Assembly (NCBI GenBank): GCA_963744145.1
Contig: CAVUSO010000001.1
Span: 7,392,001 to 7,456,000, forward strand
DNA: 64,000 nucleotides
Direction: 5' to 3'
Origin: an uncultured cyanobacterium
Lineage (GTDB): Bacteria; Cyanobacteriota; Cyanobacteriia; Cyanobacteriales; CAWUOF01
A model generated the notes under the pieces. That model saw nothing but the letters and a program-made list of their open reading frames with translations. It searched no databases and had not been told where the DNA came from. Made by a program: the position numbers and the translations under genes. This document shows positions 22,588 through 39,649 of this stretch, piece by piece; positions within the stretch are counted from its first letter, which is position 1, and the number at the start of each line of letters is the position of its first letter.

Positions 22588-23903
22588 TTACTTTAACCGA
22601 CGATAAACTGTCACTAAAGCATCGGAATCGCCTACATTTCCTGGAAATAATACCACTGGTAAATTCGGAAATTGAGGATGATCAGCAGGAGTTTTGACGA
22701 CAGAACAACCAGCTAAAATTTGGCCCAGTAATCTCGCAGTTTTTAAAGCTAATCCGGTACTGACGACATCATTAGAAGTAATTCCTCCTTTACTAATTAA
22801 AAAACCGATGTCATCTGGGAGTCCGCGCACAATATCCATTAACAATAATGAGACAGACTTACCAAAATTTAATCTGGTCTGCACATCAGCAAATTCTAAT
22901 TCCTGACGACTGGTATAAACTACGGGTGTTTTCCCCTCAGTATGAGTAGAATGTACTTTAGTCAAGCTAGTTTTTAAAATTTGCTCACGTTTAGCTGGGG
23001 ATTCATCTAATAATTCAGCCACATTGATTTCGATCCCAACGATGCCCGGTTCTTGTAGTAATTGGTGTAATTGTTCTGTACTCTTTTTAACATGGGAACC
23101 TACAATCACCACACCTGGTTTTCCATCCCGGACATATTTTGCCATTTCTGTCGCAGGGATTGGTTGGGGTGGTAAGTTAGCTAAAGCCGTTAAAATACTG
23201 GCAGCACTACGCAATAAAAAACGTTTACCTTGACCCGCAGCAGTAAGTAAATCGGCGGCAAATCGGTTAAGATCAGCTTGAGTTTCCCCATCAACGACAC
23301 AGCAATGATTTCCGGTTAAATTTAATAGACGCTCTAAGCTACTACTACGAATATCTTCTAGTAAAAATCTTTCTACATTATTTGCCAGAATCCGCCGATT
23401 AGTTTTTTCTTCGACATAATCTGGTAAGTAGCTGTGATGGTAAGCAAAAACTGAATCACGGGCAAATTCGGTTTCATGTACTGGTGTGGGAATACCATTA
23501 ATATTGAGATAATGGATACTATTACGGGTAATTCGCCACCTTCAAAGAAAGCAGGAATGAGAAAATGGGCATCAAATGGACCAATTTCTGCCCCAATCAC
23601 ATCAGTTTCAATGGGATAATGTCCTCGGAGGGTAGAATCAGAACGACTGACTATCAAGAAGTCTTTGATCTGGGTGATTGCGATCGCTTCTTTGAGATGA
23701 CGACAAACCTCACGAGTCACAATCTCAGCTTCGTCTTTTGGTAGGGCCCGAGTATTGGTTAGTACAAAGAAAATTGGTGATTCCTCCTGTAACCCTAATA
23801 TTAATGTTTCCACATCCCATTTAGTTAGTAACAAACAACTATGGACGGTTTGGGAACCAGTTGGGTCATCATCTAAGACAATAATTTTTGGTTTAATAGT
23901 CAT
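22588..23903 (-). CDS. Four-carbon acid sugar kinase family (DUF1537) protein, -1 frameshift near 23535
   Basis: N-terminal LDDDPTG and RSDSTLRGH; C-terminal SKGGITS and FPGNVG. Adding one base gives GGRITRNSIHYL and an open frame to 22588. Confidence 0.88.
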
Positions 23904-24687: not shown

Positions 24688-24827
24688 AGCTTTATTATTT
24701 TCTCATTTGACCAGACTTTTTAGTTAAATTTCGGTAAAGTGCCGAAAACTTGCTCATCATCAAGTAATATTAGCCTTTAAGATTGACTTTGAGCAGAATA
24801 GCAATTTTGGAGAGGAGTAACCTTAAC

Positions 24828-26270
24828 GTGAGTGTGAGTAATGTCAGCAATACAATTCAGGTTACTCCTGGGGAGTTTAAAGTTGAAAACCATTTCTATC
24901 CATCAGCTATTAACGCTCAGATCCATCCAATAGTCAAAGACTTTCTCTGTCTTGATTATGAGCAAATTATCCATCGCTACAGCTATCTGCATCCCCAGAT
25001 TGACGCGAAAATATTAAAACATATTTTTACTTCACCAACACAATTTTTATCTTGGGCAGGAGCAGACCTATGTAATGTTACCACGAAAGATGGAATTAGA
25101 CAAATGGTTTTAATTGAAACCAATTCCTGTCCTTCGGGTCAAAAATCTATGCCCATTTTAGATCCTCAACAAGAGCAAAGAGGATATCGTAAATTAATAG
25201 AGTTACTGTTTTGTCCGATGCTAGCTCGATCGCAAGTATCAGGAGGATTAGCGGTAATCTATGATAAAAATTTTATGGAAGCATCTGGATATGCTACGGT
25301 AATGGCTGATTATCTGAATGAAACTGTCTATTTGGTAGCTTTTCATGAAGATGATCCTGATCCTTCGGTGCGTTTCCAACAGGGAGTAATGGAAATTCGC
25401 ACAGTAGATCATCAGTGGATACCAATTCGAGCAGCTTTACGTTATGTCACTCAGCGTCCCTGGAACCGGATTCCGATTTTAACTCATACGAAGATATTAA
25501 ATCCAGTCATAACCTGTCTCGCTGGTGGTCGAAATAAAATGCTAGCAGCAAAAGCTTACGAAAATTATAACTCGTTAATTTCTAATTCCGGACTCCGGAT
25601 CAATACCCCGGAAACAATTTGTGATGTTAGTAAGGAGGATATTCCCCATTTGGTGCAAAATTGGGATGGACAAGCGGTGGTGAAAATTCCTTATGCTAAT
25701 GCGGGACAGGGAGTATTTACGATTATGAATATAGGAGAATTAAACGAATTTATGGAAATAGAGCATCACTATAGTCAATTTATCGTCCAAAGATTAATTG
25801 GCAATTGGAAATGGCAAAGATTTGCTAGCGATCGCCAATTTTTTCATATTGGTACTGTACCCGATCGCTACAAACAAAGATATGTTAGCGATCTGCGGAT
25901 GATGGTAGGTAGTTCTGCATCAGGATTTTACCCTTTAGCTATCTATGCACGTAGAGCAAGGATTCCTCTTCTTGATGTGATCAAAAAGGATATTTCTTCT
26001 TGGGATATGTTAGGTACTAATTTGTCGATCCGTAAACCTACGGAGGGTTGGGATCTAGACACAAATCGATTGTTAACTATGAATGAGGCTGATTTTAGTC
26101 ATTTAGGTTTGGGATTAGATGATTTAATTAATGCTTTTATTCAAACAGTGCTAGGAATGGTAGCAATTGACCATATGGCTGGCAATATTTTAACTGAAAC
26201 CGGGGAATTAGATCGGGCTTTTTTCCAGTCTCTAAATCAGGATGATTTTTTGCTGGAAGAAATATTATGA
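24828..26270 (+). CDS. Circularly permuted ATP-grasp-like ligase of unknown function
   Basis: N-terminal GADL...VLIETN, central VVKIPYANAGQGVF, IVQRLI and DLRMMV motifs. GTG at 24828 follows a GGAGAGG RBS (track starts at 24783). Confidence 0.65.
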   Translation: MSVSNVSNTIQVTPGEFKVENHFYPSAINAQIHPIVKDFLCLDYEQIIHRYSYLHPQIDAKILKHIFTSPTQFLSWAGADLCNVTTKDGIRQMVLIETNSCPSGQKSMPILDPQQEQRGYRKLIELLFCPMLARSQVSGGLAVIYDKNFMEASGYATVMADYLNETVYLVAFHEDDPDPSVRFQQGVMEIRTVDHQWIPIRAALRYVTQRPWNRIPILTHTKILNPVITCLAGGRNKMLAAKAYENYNSLISNSGLRINTPETICDVSKEDIPHLVQNWDGQAVVKIPYANAGQGVFTIMNIGELNEFMEIEHHYSQFIVQRLIGNWKWQRFASDRQFFHIGTVPDRYKQRYVSDLRMMVGSSASGFYPLAIYARRARIPLLDVIKKDISSWDMLGTNLSIRKPTEGWDLDTNRLLTMNEADFSHLGLGLDDLINAFIQTVLGMVAIDHMAGNILTETGELDRAFFQSLNQDDFLLEEIL

Positions 26271-26282
26271 TCAACAAAGCCA

Positions 26283-27275
26283 TTATTCAGTTTCCAGAAT
26301 TTTTAAGATTTTTAGATACAGGTTTTCGACAATTTTTTGCTGACGATCGCCAATCGAATAAAAGTTTCTTAATTCCGGATTATTATTAATCTCAATGATC
26401 ACATAATCTTCCATTGGCTGGGATATATCCCTAGTCATAATATCTACACCACATAATCTTAGTCCCATGTCTTTAGTAATATTAACTGCCAATTTATAAA
26501 AATCTGCATGAACAAGATTAGTTACATCTACTGCATCACCACCAGTAGATAAATTAGCATTATCTAAAAGATATAATTTAACCTCTTTGGGAATAATGCT
26601 ATTAAAAGTTAAATTTTTTCTTTGCAATGTGGTTTTAATTCTAACATCATCTAAATTTAGAATTATATTTCTACCTATTTGATAAAATGACTCCTGTTTT
26701 TGACATAAAAGTTCAGAAATACTAGATTTACCATCACCAATTACAAATAAGGGAATCCGCTGATATGCAGCAATAATTTCATCATCCAGTACCACAACCC
26801 GATAGTCATTACCGGAGTAAAATTTTTGCACAATTAGAAGTAAATTTTTTAGTAAAATTTCTTTCGCTGCGAGCTGGTATTCTTCTTGATTATAAACTTT
26901 AGTTACCATCCTTCCTGCTCCCAGATCGCTGGGTTTGGTGATTACAGGAAATCCAATCTGTTTAGCAAAATCAAGTCCTTGAGCTAGCTGAGTCTCTAAT
27001 ATTAAATTTTCCCCAAATTTTTCGATTGGAAATGTTTTTTCTACCGGAACTTTATAACCAAATTGGTTCAGAAAAAAACTCGCAAAACTCTTATTCTTAG
27101 CGATCTGGGAGGAACCGAGAGCATTTATATCAAAATTTCCCGTAGTGAAGAAAGTTTTTTTGCCATTTTTAAAGATAATCTGTCCACTCACACCATATTC
27201 TGGTTCTATGATCACTGTAGCTCCTAAATCAGGAGCAATTTTTTTGATTATTTCTGCTACAAATGGTGTTTTCAT
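26283..27275 (-). CDS. Stand-alone ATP-grasp ligase resembling the cyanophycin synthetase / GshF ATP-grasp domain
   Basis: FPVITKP, GNDYRVVV, RIPLFVIGDG, ANLSTGG, CGVDIM and IIEINNNP motifs; no Mur ligase domain. Confidence 0.8.
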   Translation of the reverse strand: MKTPFVAEIIKKIAPDLGATVIIEPEYGVSGQIIFKNGKKTFFTTGNFDINALGSSQIAKNKSFASFFLNQFGYKVPVEKTFPIEKFGENLILETQLAQGLDFAKQIGFPVITKPSDLGAGRMVTKVYNQEEYQLAAKEILLKNLLLIVQKFYSGNDYRVVVLDDEIIAAYQRIPLFVIGDGKSSISELLCQKQESFYQIGRNIILNLDDVRIKTTLQRKNLTFNSIIPKEVKLYLLDNANLSTGGDAVDVTNLVHADFYKLAVNITKDMGLRLCGVDIMTRDISQPMEDYVIIEINNNPELRNFYSIGDRQQKIVENLYLKILKILETE

Positions 27276-33221: not shown

Positions 33222-33262
33222 TATAATATAAATCAATGTTGTTTATACCAGAGGCAATCATC

Positions 33263-33559
33263 ATGTTATCAACTGATATTAGACCAGAATCAATGCTGAA
33301 GAGAATTGAGGAAGTTGTTTCTGTTTTAATGGAAGAACGTCCTTTTTTTAAAGAGGATCTTAATTATTCAGAAATCGTGAAACATTTAGCACAACTATTT
33401 CAAAAAAATTTACCTGTTGAAGAATTTAACACCATGTTAGATCCAGAACTAAAAGAGCATTGTAGCTTTATTATGGCAACCGAAATATTAACAAAGATTG
33501 GAGCAGATTTCACTCCTGAACAAATGGATATTTTTGATGAAGCAATCAAGCGGAAATAA
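33263..33559 (+). CDS. Hypothetical protein, probable antitoxin for the downstream PIN gene
   Basis: Acidic small ORF with a GAGG RBS, abutting the PIN gene; C-terminus FTPEQMDIFDEAIKRK. Confidence 0.55.
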   Translation: MLSTDIRPESMLKRIEEVVSVLMEERPFFKEDLNYSEIVKHLAQLFQKNLPVEEFNTMLDPELKEHCSFIMATEILTKIGADFTPEQMDIFDEAIKRK

Positions 33560-33775
33560 GTGATGATGGGTGATTTATTAGATACTAATATTGTTTCTTT
33601 TTTGATTAAGCGTAATCTCCAAATTTATCAAAGGATTGAAGATCTTAAAGCTCAACGAAAAAGTATATTTATTAGCTGTGTTACTTATTTTGATGCTATG
33701 GTTAAAGGTTTAATTGTGGTTTCTAATGATAGTGATTTATCCAGAGTTGAGGGTTTAAGTTTAGAAAATTGGTGA
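33560..33775 (+). pseudogene. VapC/PIN toxin with an internal deletion
   Basis: LLDTNIVS...ISCVTYF is joined directly to AMVKGLIVVSNDSDLSRVEGLSLENW; the central PIN segment is missing. Confidence 0.8.
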
Positions 33776-33997: not shown

Positions 33998-34588
33998 TTA
34001 ACTCATTAAAACAGATAAAGCTAATACTCCTTCATTAGTCCAATCGGAAACAATATTATCAACTAACCAATATTCTTTAAATTGTTTAAACCCTTTAGGT
34101 TGTCTTGAATAAGTTAGATTATTATTGATAGTTTTCTTTAAAAATTCCTCAATTTGTTCTATTCTAACATTCACTGTTTCATCTCTTTTATAAGCAGGAA
34201 CAGATGCAGCAAAAGTTAAAACAAGAATCGCATTACTCCAAATCTTTGAACCTAGTTTTTCTGTTAATAATTTCAAGGTTCTTTTTTCATCTGGACGAAA
34301 ACGAGTATCATCTAAGCGAGTTATATATAACAAGGAATAAACTTCATTCAAATTAACCTTTGAACGAATTATAGATAAATATCGTTCATCGGTCAATGAA
34401 TCATCTTCAGCTAAACCCGGTGTGTCAATTAAGGAAATATTACCTAAAGAACTATTATAAGCATAATGCTCGACAATTTTAGTACAGGCTTCATATTCTG
34501 AAGTCTCAGCAATATACTTACCAAAAGTTGTATTAATAAAACTGGATTTCCCCATTCCAGTTCGTCCAACTAATAGATATTTACGCAT
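33998..34588 (-). CDS. AIG1/Toc34-like TRAFAC GTPase (short partner)
   Basis: GRTGMGKSS, DTPGL, TRLDDTRF and IWSNAILVLTF motifs. Confidence 0.82.
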   Translation of the reverse strand: MRKYLLVGRTGMGKSSFINTTFGKYIAETSEYEACTKIVEHYAYNSSLGNISLIDTPGLAEDDSLTDERYLSIIRSKVNLNEVYSLLYITRLDDTRFRPDEKRTLKLLTEKLGSKIWSNAILVLTFAASVPAYKRDETVNVRIEQIEEFLKKTINNNLTYSRQPKGFKQFKEYWLVDNIVSDWTNEGVLALSVLMS

Positions 34589-34590
34589 TT

Positions 34591-35658
34591 TTATCGGCCA
34601 AAAATTGAGCCCAAAAATCCTACTGCTACACCAACAGCACCTCCCACAGCAGCACCAACTGGACCAGCTACTGCTCCAATAGCAGCCCCTATACCAGCAT
34701 AAACAAGTGTCTTACCTGCTGTCTTCAAGGTTTTATTTTGAATTAAATCAGCTTGTCTGTGGGTAAGTTCAATGTCTTGATCATAACTAGGCTTTGTAGG
34801 GGGTGGATAACTCGACACGTAATTGTCTATAAAAACATTAATTTTTTTTCTTGTTTTAGATGATTTATTTGGATCAACGATGTCTTGATCATAACGAGGC
34901 TTTGTGGAAGGGTCAACAATTTCTTTTTCTTTTTCAGGTGGTTTAATGCGATCAATTGTTGACATTAAGAAGGCTGCTCTACCTTCTTCTGATAATCTGC
35001 AATAAACTTGAGTAAATAATTCTCCTAACCATTTATTTCCATCTGGAGTGAAACTATTATTATTACTAACCCCAACTGCTGGAACATTATCAGCAATTAC
35101 TAGACCTGCATATTTAGCAATTTCTTTACGGATAAGATCAGTGCGTTTTTCTAAGGCAATAGGATATTTTTCAGGGCTAAGATTATCAGCAAAAGTAAAA
35201 ACAATAATTGCTTGCTCCCAAATTTTAGCTTTAAAGCATTCAGCAATTAGTTTAATTGCTTTTTTTTCATCTGTTGAAACTCTTGTATCATCTAAACGAG
35301 TAACAAACCACATCGAATCAACCTGCTTGACTTGCGATCGGATCATTTCTAGGTATTTGTAATCATTACCAGCTTCTTCTAAATCATCACATAGTCCTGG
35401 TGTATCAGTTACAACAACTTTTACTCCATTGAACTCACAGTGATAATTTTTGATGTCCATAGTAGTTGGTTCATACTCACCTACTGGGGCGATTTCTTTT
35501 CCCATTAATATGTTAATAGTGCTAGATTTACCTACTCCAGTTTTTCCCACTAAAAGAAATGTGAATGGTTGTCCATTTTGTGCATTAATAAGCTTTTGTG
35601 CCAGTTCTTCTACAAACTGTTTGGCTTGTTTTTCAGCTTCCGAGTCAAATGGTGGCAT
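34591..35658 (-). CDS. AIG1/Toc34-like TRAFAC GTPase with a C-terminal glycine-zipper hydrophobic tail
   Basis: GKTGVGKSS, DTPGL, TRLDDTRV and IWEQAIIVFTF motifs; tail AGIGAAIGAVAGPVGAAVGGAVGVAVGFLG. Confidence 0.85.
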   Translation of the reverse strand: MPPFDSEAEKQAKQFVEELAQKLINAQNGQPFTFLLVGKTGVGKSSTINILMGKEIAPVGEYEPTTMDIKNYHCEFNGVKVVVTDTPGLCDDLEEAGNDYKYLEMIRSQVKQVDSMWFVTRLDDTRVSTDEKKAIKLIAECFKAKIWEQAIIVFTFADNLSPEKYPIALEKRTDLIRKEIAKYAGLVIADNVPAVGVSNNNSFTPDGNKWLGELFTQVYCRLSEEGRAAFLMSTIDRIKPPEKEKEIVDPSTKPRYDQDIVDPNKSSKTRKKINVFIDNYVSSYPPPTKPSYDQDIELTHRQADLIQNKTLKTAGKTLVYAGIGAAIGAVAGPVGAAVGGAVGVAVGFLGSIFGR

Positions 35659-35766
35659 AGTTTTATATGTATTATCAAAATTTGCTTTGCTGTAAGCATC
35701 TATCTCAAATACAAGTATAGACCAATAATTTAGGGATTGTCATCCTAAAAAATCTTATTTATCTAG

Positions 35767-35926
35767 CAATAGGTTTCAGTTAACTGTAGGGGCAAAGCAT
35801 TTCGGCGCATAAATGATGGCTCAAACGCTTGCCCTGAGTTTATCCGATCGTTTACCCTGAGCGCCCTTCGATTTGTCCCTGAGCGCCCTTCGACTACACT
35901 AAGGGACAAGTCTAAGGGCGCTCAAG
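35767..35926 (+). repeat. Truncated B hairpin filled with a pile of degenerate 24-nt elements
   Basis: CAATAGGTTTCAGTTAA-ct-GTAGGGGCAAAGCATTTCGGCG followed by CTTGCCCTGAG, TTTACCCTGAGCG, TTGTCCCTGAGCG and CCCTTCGACTACACTAAGGG fragments; the right stem arm is absent. Confidence 0.8.
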
Positions 35927-36003
35927 AACAATCAGAGGAATAGCCAGATTTATGCAAAGACGCAAGTAGTAAAATATTGTAGCCGACTTATAGCATAATA
36001 TCA

Positions 36004-36645
36004 ATGACAGATCAAGAACTCAACGCTTGCTCACCTATTCCAGTAAATCCAGAATTTTTTAATCCTAACTATTACCTACCCTATGGGCTAGAAATATCTC
36101 ATATCTATCAAGCTATGAATGAATTTATTGATTTTCTAGGATTTATTAATGGTCAACTCAAAACCAAAAATATGTCGCGTTTGGAAAGTTTTTTAATGCC
36201 TGCAAATTTTAGCAGCATGGTAGGCGAATTTATGAATATGAGTATTCCAAAATATTGTCCTAGCCTCGTAAAGAATCAATATCACAATGGTCATCCAGAT
36301 CTGATTCCAGTAAATACTTTTCCTAATAATGCAGTTCAGTATTCAAGCCAAGGTATAGAAGTCAAAGGTTCTAGACATTTAAGGGGTTGGCAAGGGCACA
36401 ATCCTGAATCTGGATGGCTTATGGTTTTCTGTTTTGATAGCAATACATCTAGTGATAACATTAAAAATGTAGAGCCAAAGCCCTTCGTCTTTAGAGCAAT
36501 ATATGCAGCTAAACTTGCTCAAGAGGATTGGATTTTTTCTGGTCGTTCCGTAACTAGTCGTCGGACAATTACAGCAAGTGTTAACAAAAATGGTTTTAAT
36601 AAAATGAAAACTAACTGGATCTATAAAGATCCATTAAATCCGTAA
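36004..36645 (+). CDS. Putative type II restriction endonuclease (PD-(D/E)xK)
   Basis: HNGHPDL...GIEVK motif; convergent with and overlapping the methyltransferase gene. Confidence 0.65.
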   Translation: MTDQELNACSPIPVNPEFFNPNYYLPYGLEISHIYQAMNEFIDFLGFINGQLKTKNMSRLESFLMPANFSSMVGEFMNMSIPKYCPSLVKNQYHNGHPDLIPVNTFPNNAVQYSSQGIEVKGSRHLRGWQGHNPESGWLMVFCFDSNTSSDNIKNVEPKPFVFRAIYAAKLAQEDWIFSGRSVTSRRTITASVNKNGFNKMKTNWIYKDPLNP

Positions 36646-37587
36646 AGGAATTTGATCATCTTCTGTCTGGATCATTGTCAATTTTGGAATCGCAATTTTG
36701 CTTTTTTCAAAGTAGTCTTTATACCTCTCAATGCCAATTCCTTGATATCCAACAGCCTCGGCAGCCGCGATCGTAGAACCAGATCCCATAAAAGGGTCTA
36801 CCACAATACCTTGTCCTAGCGGTAGAGCAGCATAGACAATTTTTCTCAAGAAAGATTGTGGTTTAAGACTAGGATGTTCTACAACACTACGCTCTCTTTG
36901 AGGAGTACGTTCACTAGGAATAACATCCTCAAAAGGATTACCGTCAGGCTTTCTCCTTAAACCTCCTGTTCCAAACTCTTTCAGACAATCACTAACCTTC
37001 ATTCCCTTCAAGAGAGGTTTACGGAAAATCCCCCAAGGTTCAAAACACCCACGAGGCATTGAACACACATCATCAAATTCTTTTTCAGCATTTTTTGGTC
37101 TATCCCCTCCACGTAAAGTTCTGACTAACCGAACAACTGTTCCTCTATACTCAAATCCGCCATCTATCAATGCTTGAAAAACCAACTGTGAGAGAAATGT
37201 ATTAGATGCAATGAATATATGAGCGCCAGGACACATAGGTCGAATAGCTGCCTTTGTCCATTCCAGAAAAAAACTATTTAAGCTCGTTCTTTCCTTATCA
37301 TTAAGAGCTGTAAAACGTGGCAATGGAGAACGTATATTTCCATCAAACGATGGTGGTATTCGCCAAATTCCTCCCTGGCCATTGTCTTTTTTTTCTAACT
37401 GATCAAAGTCATATTCTTTAACTCCATAAGGAGGATCAGTGACGATCGCATGAATACTATGCTCAGGAACTGCCCTCAGCCATTCAAAACAGTCTGCGTG
37501 TATTGCTAAAGACTGACCATACTCATATACTGAATATTTAAGTGTTAATTGTGTATATTGTTTTAGCACAGACTGCTCACAACTCAA
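36634..37587 (-). CDS. Site-specific DNA methyltransferase (N6-A/N4-C, beta class)
   Basis: Catalytic DPPY precedes HPSLKP and the SAM-binding DPFMGSGST; start uncertain. Confidence 0.9.
   Translation of the reverse strand: MSCEQSVLKQYTQLTLKYSVYEYGQSLAIHADCFEWLRAVPEHSIHAIVTDPPYGVKEYDFDQLEKKDNGQGGIWRIPPSFDGNIRSPLPRFTALNDKERTSLNSFFLEWTKAAIRPMCPGAHIFIASNTFLSQLVFQALIDGGFEYRGTVVRLVRTLRGGDRPKNAEKEFDDVCSMPRGCFEPWGIFRKPLLKGMKVSDCLKEFGTGGLRRKPDGNPFEDVIPSERTPQRERSVVEHPSLKPQSFLRKIVYAALPLGQGIVVDPFMGSGSTIAAAEAVGYQGIGIERYKDYFEKSKIAIPKLTMIQTEDDQIPLRI

Positions 37588-37722: not shown

Positions 37723-39649
<1,927 letters not shown>

Follow-up and report, generated by a model that had tools for sequence, protein, structure and literature searches.

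Two adjacent genes in a 64,000-nucleotide stretch of DNA from an uncultured cyanobacterium (lineage CAWUOF01; GenBank contig CAVUSO010000001.1, positions 7,392,001 to 7,456,000; the whole stretch is called the window below) encode bacterial AIG1/Toc34-like ("paraseptin") GTPases and form a two-gene operon, an identification and an arrangement that are close to certain. The first gene specifies a long protein of 355 amino acids (aa) and the second a short paralogue of 196 aa. Bacterial AIG-type GTPases of conflict systems are known already; new here are the conserved minimal two-gene form, the closeness of the family to the chloroplast receptors Toc33 and Toc34, and a map of the domain fusions of the family. 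The parts of the module are the following (ORF, open reading frame; pLDDT, predicted local distance difference test).

34591..35658, minus strand: long GTPase gene, 355 aa (ORF; Pfam AIG1 E-value 2.2e-22; AlphaFold2 mean pLDDT 81.4)
34954..35577, minus strand: G domain and helical extension of the long protein, residues 28-235 (alignment to Toc33)
34772..34905, minus strand: linker of the long protein with a duplication (26-nt copies at 34772-34797 and 34880-34905)
34594..34761, minus strand: C-terminal membrane element of the long protein, residues 300-355 (hydropathy, glycine conservation)
34589..34590, minus strand: spacer of 2 bp at the operon junction, between the long-gene stop and the short-gene start
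33998..34588, minus strand: short GTPase gene, 196 aa (ORF; Pfam AIG1 E-value 6.2e-18; AlphaFold2 mean pLDDT 83.9)
35659..36003, no strand: divergent intergenic region upstream of the long gene (sigma-70-like consensus matches only)

Both proteins match the Pfam family AIG1 (PF04548), with 79.9 bits for the long and 65.3 bits for the short one against a cut-off of 27, and they are by far the best AIG1 matches in their own genome, which holds no other strong one. In NCBIfam, each protein matches the models of the Toc159 and Toc34 families best (E about 1e-16 to 1e-19). However, the scores of the long and short proteins are 68.2 and 58.2 bits for Toc34 (TIGR00991; curated cut-off 421.55) and 67.7 and 64.3 bits for Toc159 (TIGR00993; E ~1e-18; cut-off 660.7), so far below the curated cut-offs that neither protein is a Toc34 or a Toc159. 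The membrane-anchor domain of Toc159 (PF11886) has no match in either protein in the Pfam search. Among 401 sampled cyanobacterial genomes, TIGR00991 recognizes 14 at E<=1e-8, namely the 13 that hold the family described here and one weak extra, as well as 0 of 14 controls; none of the 401 scores above the curated cut-off.

Searches against proteins of solved structure gave the same picture. For both proteins, Arabidopsis Toc33 and pea Toc34 come first in the PDB sequence search (single-sequence E 3e-15 and 3e-13), followed by Chlamydomonas Toc34 and Toc120/90, then GIMAP7, and then EngA/Der. A profile of the long family (85 sequences) matches Toc33 over the whole G domain with 104 bits (E 9e-29) and GIMAP7 with 61 bits (E 1e-15), and a profile of the short family (61 sequences) matches the same two proteins with 82 bits (E 3e-22) and 45 bits, respectively. 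When the AlphaFold2 models, built on the family alignments, were compared with the PDB by Foldseek, only Toc34/Toc33 chains were listed for the short model through rank 14, the first other protein being Era at rank 16; for the long model, ranks 1-10 were all Toc33/34 and the next one listed was GIMAP2 at rank 15. VIA-align gave the long model Z-scores of 18.7-19.7 for six Toc33/34 entries (~200 residues, root-mean-square deviation 3.1-4.4, 25-27% identity), as compared with 16.3 for YsxC, 15.6 for GIMAP2, 15.4 for Rag/Gtr and 14.7 for LeoA. The original prediction for this locus, made from the nucleotide sequence alone, had pointed to a resemblance to Toc34/Toc159 and AIG1/GIMAP and had named generic Era/YfjP-type GTPases as the best structural hits that would speak against it; Toc33/Toc34 head both the sequence and the fold searches. 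A generic Era or YfjP/YkfA type is thus rejected as best match, Era and YsxC ranking below all Toc33/34 entries, and YkfA-type plasmid genes reach only 25-29% identity (E ~1e-7).

The sequence motifs of the two proteins agree with this assignment. The G1 P-loop reads GKTGVGKSS in the long and GRTGMGKSS in the short protein, G3 is DTPGL in both, and an arginine-finger motif, TRLDDTRV (R126) in the long and TRLDDTRF (R96) in the short protein, is followed by IWEQAIIVFTF and IWSNAILVLTF, respectively. The G4-like motif is TFAD in the long and TFAA in the short protein, and the short protein has its switch-I threonine at Thr36. Over 126 residues the two are 46% identical (E 2e-33). In HMMER alignments, R126 and R96 stand opposite R130 of Toc33, whose R130A mutant is dimerisation-deficient according to the title of its PDB entry, and this arginine is invariant in 85 long and 61 short homologues. 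L35, G38, G41-S45 and D85-L89 of the long protein are, like R126, invariant in its 85 homologues, and the P-loop, the switch-I threonine and D-T-P-G are conserved in both families. In place of the canonical N-K-x-D there is T-F-A-x, at the position of T-H-A-Q in Toc33/34. A conserved V-D-N motif, which the long-family profile aligns with E-N-S of Toc33, may have a role in guanine binding. Both proteins most likely bind GTP, as judged from these motifs.

In the long protein, an N-terminal helix precedes the AIG1/Toc34-like G domain, which together with its helical extension spans residues ~28-240; a disordered linker then leads to a conserved helix and, at the end, the glycine-zipper tail. The sole hydrophobic stretch of the long protein is the glycine-rich C-terminus, with a 19-residue Kyte-Doolittle maximum of 1.90 at residues 334-352, whereas the short protein has no hydrophobic segment on the same scale. 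The tail is a hydrophobic glycine-zipper hairpin interrupted by one proline; its glycines G324, G328, G332, G335, G339, G340 and G343 are nearly invariant among the 85 long homologues, and an amphipathic helix with the pattern I-x-L-x-x-x-Q, conserved in the long family, precedes it. Weak matches of the tail were found to the glycine-zipper families C19orf12 and DUF6861 of Pfam and to the C-terminal part of LeoB in PADLOC. Among homologues the linker differs in length, and its pLDDT is low. In the window it carries a 26-nt direct repeat, 96% identical and in frame, with copies 108 nt apart that encode TKPRYDQDI and TKPSYDQDI; the closest homologue (P0002) has one copy of the TKP(R/S)YDQDI peptide, and the duplication appears to be recent.

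At the junction of the two genes, TAA-AA-ATG, the long-gene stop and the short-gene start lie on the same strand with a 2-bp gap. Upstream of the long gene, sigma-70-like sequences occur (for example 35743->35714 on the minus strand), which are consensus matches and not functional evidence. Most of what the original prediction had read from these genes is borne out: the two co-oriented ORFs 2 bp apart, the four motifs in both translations, a phenylalanine opposite the G4 histidine of the Toc "THAQ" in both proteins, the glycine-zipper tail, and the internal duplication of the linker. Its picture of a membrane-anchored protein with a soluble partner also fits the sequences, one C-terminal hydrophobic segment being present in the long protein and none in the short.

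The two genes form a conserved unit. When species-representative genomes were scanned for the long protein, 203 relatives came up; 80 loci were kept and read with a simple ORF caller, and two of these (L049 and L057) had no GTPase ORF and were dropped from the counts. A long gene followed directly by a short-family gene was found in 29 of the kept loci, which with the window makes 30 pair loci, and the 49 loci with a long gene but no short neighbour are an upper bound, as some of them (L037, L047) end soon after the long gene. The long gene comes first and the short one second, on the same strand, in all 30 pair loci, with a spacing of -41 to +181 bp that is at most 17 bp in 28 of the 30 and often is an overlap of 4 or 8 bp. 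The homologues are thus conserved as a pair, a point on which the original prediction had staked itself. The distance matrices of the long and short partners correlate with r 0.93, and 0 of 2000 permutations were as high; such mirrored partner trees indicate co-inheritance as a unit, although by themselves they are no proof of physical interaction. The nearest relatives of the window pair are in a metagenome-assembled genome (MAG) of Microcoleaceae (72% identity for the long gene in a tblastn match, 73% for the short protein), and pairs are present in cyanobacteria, Anaerolineae, Saprospiraceae, one deltaproteobacterial MAG and one unclassified MAG. The short family forms a single clade on a long branch (SH-aLRT, an approximate likelihood-ratio support, 99 in a first tree, which left out one protein of more than 700 aa, L095; 100/100 in a G-domain tree). 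Pair-type long proteins occur in at least three places of the long-family tree, deep non-cyanobacterial branches included. No third gene is conserved beside the pair across the pair loci, and no paper on an operon of a tail-anchored and a soluble GTPase of this kind was found in the literature search, the supplementary source data of the eLife papers being a place where such proteins may be listed.

Other arrangements also bring two G domains together. Long genes in tandem are conserved between Scytonema and Nostoc genomes (L089 3036-5622 and L098 8919-11371), a Calothrix MAG has a long-long-short triple (L041 9995-12939), and two cluster representatives (P0241 and P0242) carry tandem AIG1-type G domains in a single chain. 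The first copy in P0241 is without the P-loop, the threonine of D-T-P-G and the arginine-finger motif, and because of these losses it looks like a pseudo-GTPase partner. As the arginine finger is invariant and G domains are recurrently paired in the family, the long and short proteins probably form a heterodimer. Separately, one short-family gene (L013 1354-1929, in genome G284), 54% identical to that of the window, has no long gene within 1.5 kb, and no long homologue was found in that genome at E<=1e-20.

The family is large, and its occurrence is patchy. When all of 1.84 billion cluster representatives were searched by HMMER for the long G domain, 236 clusters scored at E<=1e-30, and the number rose to 881 at E<=1e-10 and to 4367 at E<=1e-3. 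Of the 401 sampled cyanobacterial genomes, 13, that of the window included, contain a relative at E<=1e-20, and all 13 belong to one order; seven of them hold both partners, and G284 has the short type only. Outside cyanobacteria, members exist in Chloroflexota, Acidobacteriota, Gemmatimonadota, Bacteroidota, Rhodothermota, Pseudomonadota, Poribacteria and others, so that at least nine bacterial phyla are represented. One member lies on a Calothrix plasmid and one pair locus carries ParA and Mob genes, and the long protein found no match in a phage collection. In the window, the G+C content is 0.32-0.35 across 32-36 kb and about 0.40-0.43 around it. On the basis of this distribution, the low-G+C stretch, the plasmid-borne member and the ParA/Mob locus, the pair is accessory. 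The module is self-contained and passes, by inheritance and by transfer, as one piece.

Many members of the family have additional domains. A length of at least 400 aa is reached by 66 of the 150 best representatives, and 65 of these were scanned with Pfam, P0289 (an animal-type five-fold GIMAP repeat) being left out. At the N-terminus, TIR was found in 15 of the 65, an Hsp70 ATPase domain in seven, a cold-shock domain (CSD) in five (one of them also with TIR), EAD11 in four, and EAD7, CHAT and TPR in two each; caspase, FHA, HTH, Sel1, an acyl-carrier-like domain and DUF2934 occur once each. Two representatives have a second AIG1 domain and 21 have no extra Pfam domain. The bacterial origin of fused forms was established in named loci only, which include TIR-CSD-AIG1 in Anaerolineales, LRR-Roc-COR-AIG1 in Blastocatellia, and a Longimicrobium locus in which AIG1 is followed by a cyanobacterial TRADD-N-associated domain with two transmembrane segments. 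The fused forms are 45-57% identical to the G domain of the window and are interspersed with unfused ones in a tree whose backbone is unresolved. Their C-termini are glycine zippers, or amphipathic helices ending in W-x-x-F/L-x-G, and three or more GxxxG motifs lie within the last 60 residues of 86 of the 150 representatives. From these architectures and C-termini, the G domain and a membrane-directed tail are the constant part of the family and the N-terminus is the variable one.

Our overall best explanation, to which we give somewhat better than even credence, is that of a G-domain dimer that would depend on GTP, be targeted to a membrane and act in conflict or immunity. The long subunit would hold its cytoplasmic G domain at the membrane, or be inserted there, via the C-terminal glycine-zipper hairpin, and the short subunit would be a soluble paralogue, the G domain alone. 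The G domains would pair across the nucleotide pocket, each arginine finger completing the active site of its partner as in Toc33/Toc34 dimers, and the most likely role of the module would then lie in conflict (anti-phage, abortive infection or similar), as a membrane switch or effector gated by GTP. Its output might be nucleotide-dependent assembly on the membrane, with the glycine-zipper tail as the candidate membrane-perturbing part. The conflict role, which we consider about evenly balanced, is suggested by the repeated fusion of the family core to immune-type sensor, adaptor or effector domains, and the pair is a candidate defence effector because its family is otherwise fused to TIR, caspase/CHAT and EAD domains. 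The original prediction's "possibly anti-phage" draws its strength mainly from these fusions, and the neighbourhoods add far less. Among neighbours in the 16 annotated pair loci are toxin-antitoxin (TA) modules (PIN, DUF433/DUF5615, HEPN/nucleotidyltransferase and HicA), HNH nucleases, a BRO-N protein, a ThsB-like TIR protein, an EAD11 protein and a bpMoxR ATPase. In ten loci, mostly of Microcoleus, a STAND ATPase of the NB-ARC/NACHT-like type (459-499 aa; for example L022 3153-4532(-) and L030 8358-9857(-)) is divergent from the pair, its N-terminal ~140-180 residues matching no assigned domain; it is absent from the window.

Several observations weigh against this explanation, and some of them favour the main rival, a housekeeping or stress membrane GTPase engaged in remodelling, protein targeting, or envelope or thylakoid upkeep, such as a primitive Toc34-type receptor or a small dynamin/septin-like scaffold. 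The window pair itself has no immune-type domain, and the AlphaFold2 confidence is low in the tail region (pLDDT 34-56). PADLOC models are matched at E<=1e-6 by no more than 6 of 95 neighbour proteins, from 5 of the 16 pair loci, and PADLOC has no system model for the pair beyond partial dynamin-like P-loop matches. The STAND neighbour, confined to one clade, may reflect shared ancestry, and since TA modules are very common in filamentous cyanobacteria, their proximity says little. Ordinary metabolic and housekeeping genes (alaS, pntAB, sodB and a GUN4-domain gene) flank many pair loci, and the pair of the window likewise lies amid housekeeping genes. In a Nostocales clade of solo long genes, the synteny with a phosphoketolase (21 loci) and a P450 gene (11 loci) is stable and looks more like that of a vertically inherited cell function. 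Moreover, the nearest solved relatives, Toc33/34, are receptors and not immune proteins. A housekeeping function is nevertheless unlikely in our view: an occurrence in 13 of 401 sampled cyanobacterial genomes does not resemble that of a core function, and the scatter over unrelated phyla, the fusion of members to TIR, EAD, caspase and CHAT domains, the low G+C of the locus and the one member on a plasmid also speak against it. The membrane-directed G-domain dimer acting in conflict thus remains the preferred reading, and no experimental test of an AIG1-type GTPase in phage defence was found in the literature search.

Two further observations concern the pair neighbourhoods. A Tic20-like gene lies four genes upstream of the pair in Microcoleus loci (L024 240-767; L030 6006-6479), probably by plain synteny, though the coincidence is curious next to a Toc34-like gene, and a GUN4-domain protein beside one pair locus (L033 6262-7350(-)) matches the C-terminal part of PD-T4-6 in PADLOC (E 4e-47).

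The resemblance to Toc33/34 also raises the question of ancestry, which is compatible with either function. The plastid TOC receptor GTPases might derive from the family, and hence from prokaryotes, possibly cyanobacteria: a Toc34-like GTPase with a tail anchor, perhaps paired already with a paralogue, would have moved to the host nucleus and been re-used at the outer envelope. In favour of this are the PDB sequence and fold matches, best for Toc33/34 and well above GIMAPs, the common arginine finger, the N-terminal helix before G1, the "T-x-A" variant of G4 and the predicted C-terminal tail anchoring, as well as the fact that the only Toc34-like matches in the sampled cyanobacteria belong to the GTPase-pair family. 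A G-domain tree was built, with 59 rows and 208 columns, Era and Der of the window's own genome as outgroup, and, as eukaryotic rows, one Toc159-family protein (P0392, which has PF11886) and four animal GIMAP-like proteins. The tree sets every AIG-type row apart from the outgroup (98/98), and the Toc159-family row groups with the GIMAP rows (89/68, on long branches) and not with the cyanobacterial proteins, inside an unresolved bacterial radiation. A topology in which this row is forced to join the cyanobacterial long clade is worse by 6.8 log-likelihood units, which does not suffice for rejection (approximately unbiased test, AU p 0.349). A tree with these five eukaryotic rows, none of them a Toc34, thus neither supports nor rejects a specific link to TOC, and it fits a bacterial origin of the eukaryotic AIG1-type GTPases; Kaur et al. 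2021 (PMC8195603) likewise trace AIG-GTPases ultimately to bacteria. The patchy distribution, limited to a single order of the sampled cyanobacteria, makes simple descent from the plastid ancestor less likely; other phyla hold the family just as much, so that a cyanobacterial donor is not indicated, and the scores of the window proteins with the curated Toc34/Toc159 models are far below the cut-offs. On balance, we hold it to be very unlikely that this family was the source of the TOC receptors.

The reverse direction, a recent acquisition of an AIG1 gene from a plant, alga or protist, is disfavoured and appears extremely unlikely. The nearest ESM Atlas clusters of the short protein are eukaryotic AIG1 (language-model features, score 0.96), which is a lead only, and a 2026 plant study (PMC12845241) cites an origin of Toc33/Toc159 in the eukaryotic host and repeats reports that AIG1-like genes had not been found in prokaryotes. 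However, the 236 clusters at E<=1e-30 include many bacterial-type architectures, at least nine bacterial phyla have members, the eukaryotic rows are nested on long branches among bacterial ones, and the operon structure is conserved. A more specific proposal, that paired tail-anchored bacterial Toc34-like GTPases originally acting in conflict were the stock from which plastid Toc34 with Toc159 arose, is quite unlikely; if true, what passes for a "eukaryotic invention" at the chloroplast surface would be a re-used bacterial membrane GTPase pair.

The surroundings of the pair in the window include two features outside the module.

36004..37587, no strand: restriction-modification pair (Pfam, PADLOC)
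33236..33775, plus strand: 107-aa ORF followed by a VapC remnant (profile searches)

In the former, the methylase (36634-37587(-), 317 aa, N6/N4 type) matches MTase_II of PADLOC strongly (E 4e-100) and the 213-aa ORF (36004-36645(+)) matches REase_II weakly (4.6e-8), so that the restriction-modification pair named in the original prediction does adjoin the GTPase genes; no such pair lies beside the GTPase genes in the 16 annotated related pair loci. Further out lie chromosomal genes of the ordinary kind (minC, phosphoketolase, a ClC channel, TMEM175, dnaK and a CRP-type regulator), and the "defence-type island" proposed there was a generous term for a small insert amid housekeeping genes. Of the decayed VapBC and HicB neighbours proposed with it, the decayed VapC stands: the 71-aa ORF 33560-33775(+) matches VapC profile positions 2-39 and 105-131 only, and because just the two ends of the models are covered, the remnant seems to be internally deleted. 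HicB was not found among the window neighbours in the Pfam search, in which the 107-aa ORF (33236-33559) matches no family at E<=0.05; this ORF, standing before the VapC remnant, may be a diverged antitoxin. As for the site without the insert, the two nearest genomes with the phosphoketolase-ClC pair share nothing else of the region (~10 kb each compared), and for this reason no clean insertion boundary can be drawn.

Some other genes of the window deserve mention in their own right. The dnaK gene (37723-39640(-)) is in two frames, an N-terminal part at 38741-39640 and a C-terminal part at 37723-38694, and the change of frame around 38,700-38,790 indicates a single frameshift, either of a pseudogene or as an assembly indel. 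The gene is a canonical, frameshifted dnaK, and no link between it and the Hsp70-fused members of the family emerged; the largest neighbour cluster across the loci is phosphoketolase, not dnaK. A sugar kinase of the DUF1537 type (22588-23903(-)) is seemingly split as well (SBD_N 23373-23903, NBD_C 22588-23214), so that, counting dnaK and vapC, a span of 17 kb holds three broken genes; assembly indels or gene decay may be the cause. A second low-G+C stretch (24783-27275; 0.32 at 26-28 kb) contains a 495-aa ORF (24783-26270(+)) of no Pfam family and, adjoining it, an ATP-grasp/RimK-like gene (26283-27275(-)).

Among known systems, the DO-GTPases resemble the pair in being two paralogous TRAFAC GTPases that are encoded together, predicted to dimerise and often membrane-proximal. 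As described by Kaur et al. 2020 (PMC7159879), DO-GTPases have zinc ribbons at the N-terminus, a glutamate in Walker B and GAP1 as a partner, and cyanobacteria nearly lack them. The window pair cannot be identified with them, its Walker B being D-T-P-G, with an aspartate instead of a glutamate, which is invariant in the long family; nor is any third gene conserved beside it as GAP1 is in DO-GTPases, no search with a GAP1 profile having been made. Eleos (LeoA/LeoBC) is alike in having membrane-associated paralogous GTPases that act jointly in defence, and weak P-loop matches to LeoBC/LeoA were obtained with PADLOC (residues 6-132 against positions 50-163 of 601, E 1e-14). However, the match is partial (114 of 601 profile positions) and does not extend over the full length of the LeoA/LeoBC models, a dynamin stalk or paddle is absent, and LeoA ranks 44th for the long model in Foldseek.

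The closest bacterial precedent is the AIG-subfamily GTPase described as an effector domain of iSTAND ternary conflict systems in multicellular bacteria (Kaur et al. 2020, PMC7159879, where the EAD domains are also defined); there, the AIG domain is fused to the vWA component of a three-part system. The family described here shares with these iSTAND and vWA-MoxR systems the bacterial AIG-type G domain, tied to conflict in multicellular bacteria with cyanobacteria among them, and the vocabulary of EAD7, EAD11, TIR, caspase and CHAT. It differs in that the long protein of the window stands alone, is tail-anchored and has a dedicated short paralogue; no MoxR, vWA or iSTAND gene was found in the window between 21.7 and 42.7 kb, and in one pair locus (L076) a bpMoxR gene lies three genes away.

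The animal and plant GIMAP/IAN proteins belong to the same Pfam family, AIG1, and have an immune association and multi-G-domain forms (P0289, P0390), but their sequence and fold scores with the window proteins are lower than those of Toc33/34. Several GIMAPs are tail-anchored and form G-domain dimers or oligomers on membranes (cf. the titles of PDB entries 2xtn and 3zjc). As a minimal membrane-directed module, the pair is a tractable candidate for a new defence effector and a possible bacterial counterpart of these membrane-acting immune GTPases. GIMAP/AIG1-like effectors in Amoebophilus are mentioned by Aravind et al. 2012 (PMC3417536).

With the Toc159 family (Toc159/132/120/90) the window proteins share the AIG1-type G domain, the Toc120/90 chain being matched by the short-family profile at E 2e-16. 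In the TOC complex, Toc159 pairs with Toc34, a smaller paralogous GTPase. The window proteins have neither the membrane-anchor domain (MAD, PF11886) nor an acidic domain, and here it is the larger partner that is tail-anchored. To Toc33/Toc34, the likeness consists in the R-L-D-x-x-R-V arginine-finger motif, the helix before G1, T-x-A in place of N-K-x-D, and, for the long protein, a putative C-terminal membrane anchor with a G domain that would face the cytoplasm. The differences are an identity of ~25%, the phenylalanine in place of the G4 histidine, the form of the anchor, a glycine-zipper hairpin that follows on a long disordered linker, the sharing of an operon with a soluble, truncated paralogue, and a bacterial host without a TOC complex. 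In short, a sizeable family of tail-anchored GTPases, with Toc33/Toc34 as the nearest solved relatives, exists in filamentous cyanobacteria and other bacteria, and by keeping the catalytic and dimerisation arginine of Toc34 it offers a concrete bacterial outgroup, and a possible source, for studies of the origins of the TOC and GIMAP/IAN GTPases.

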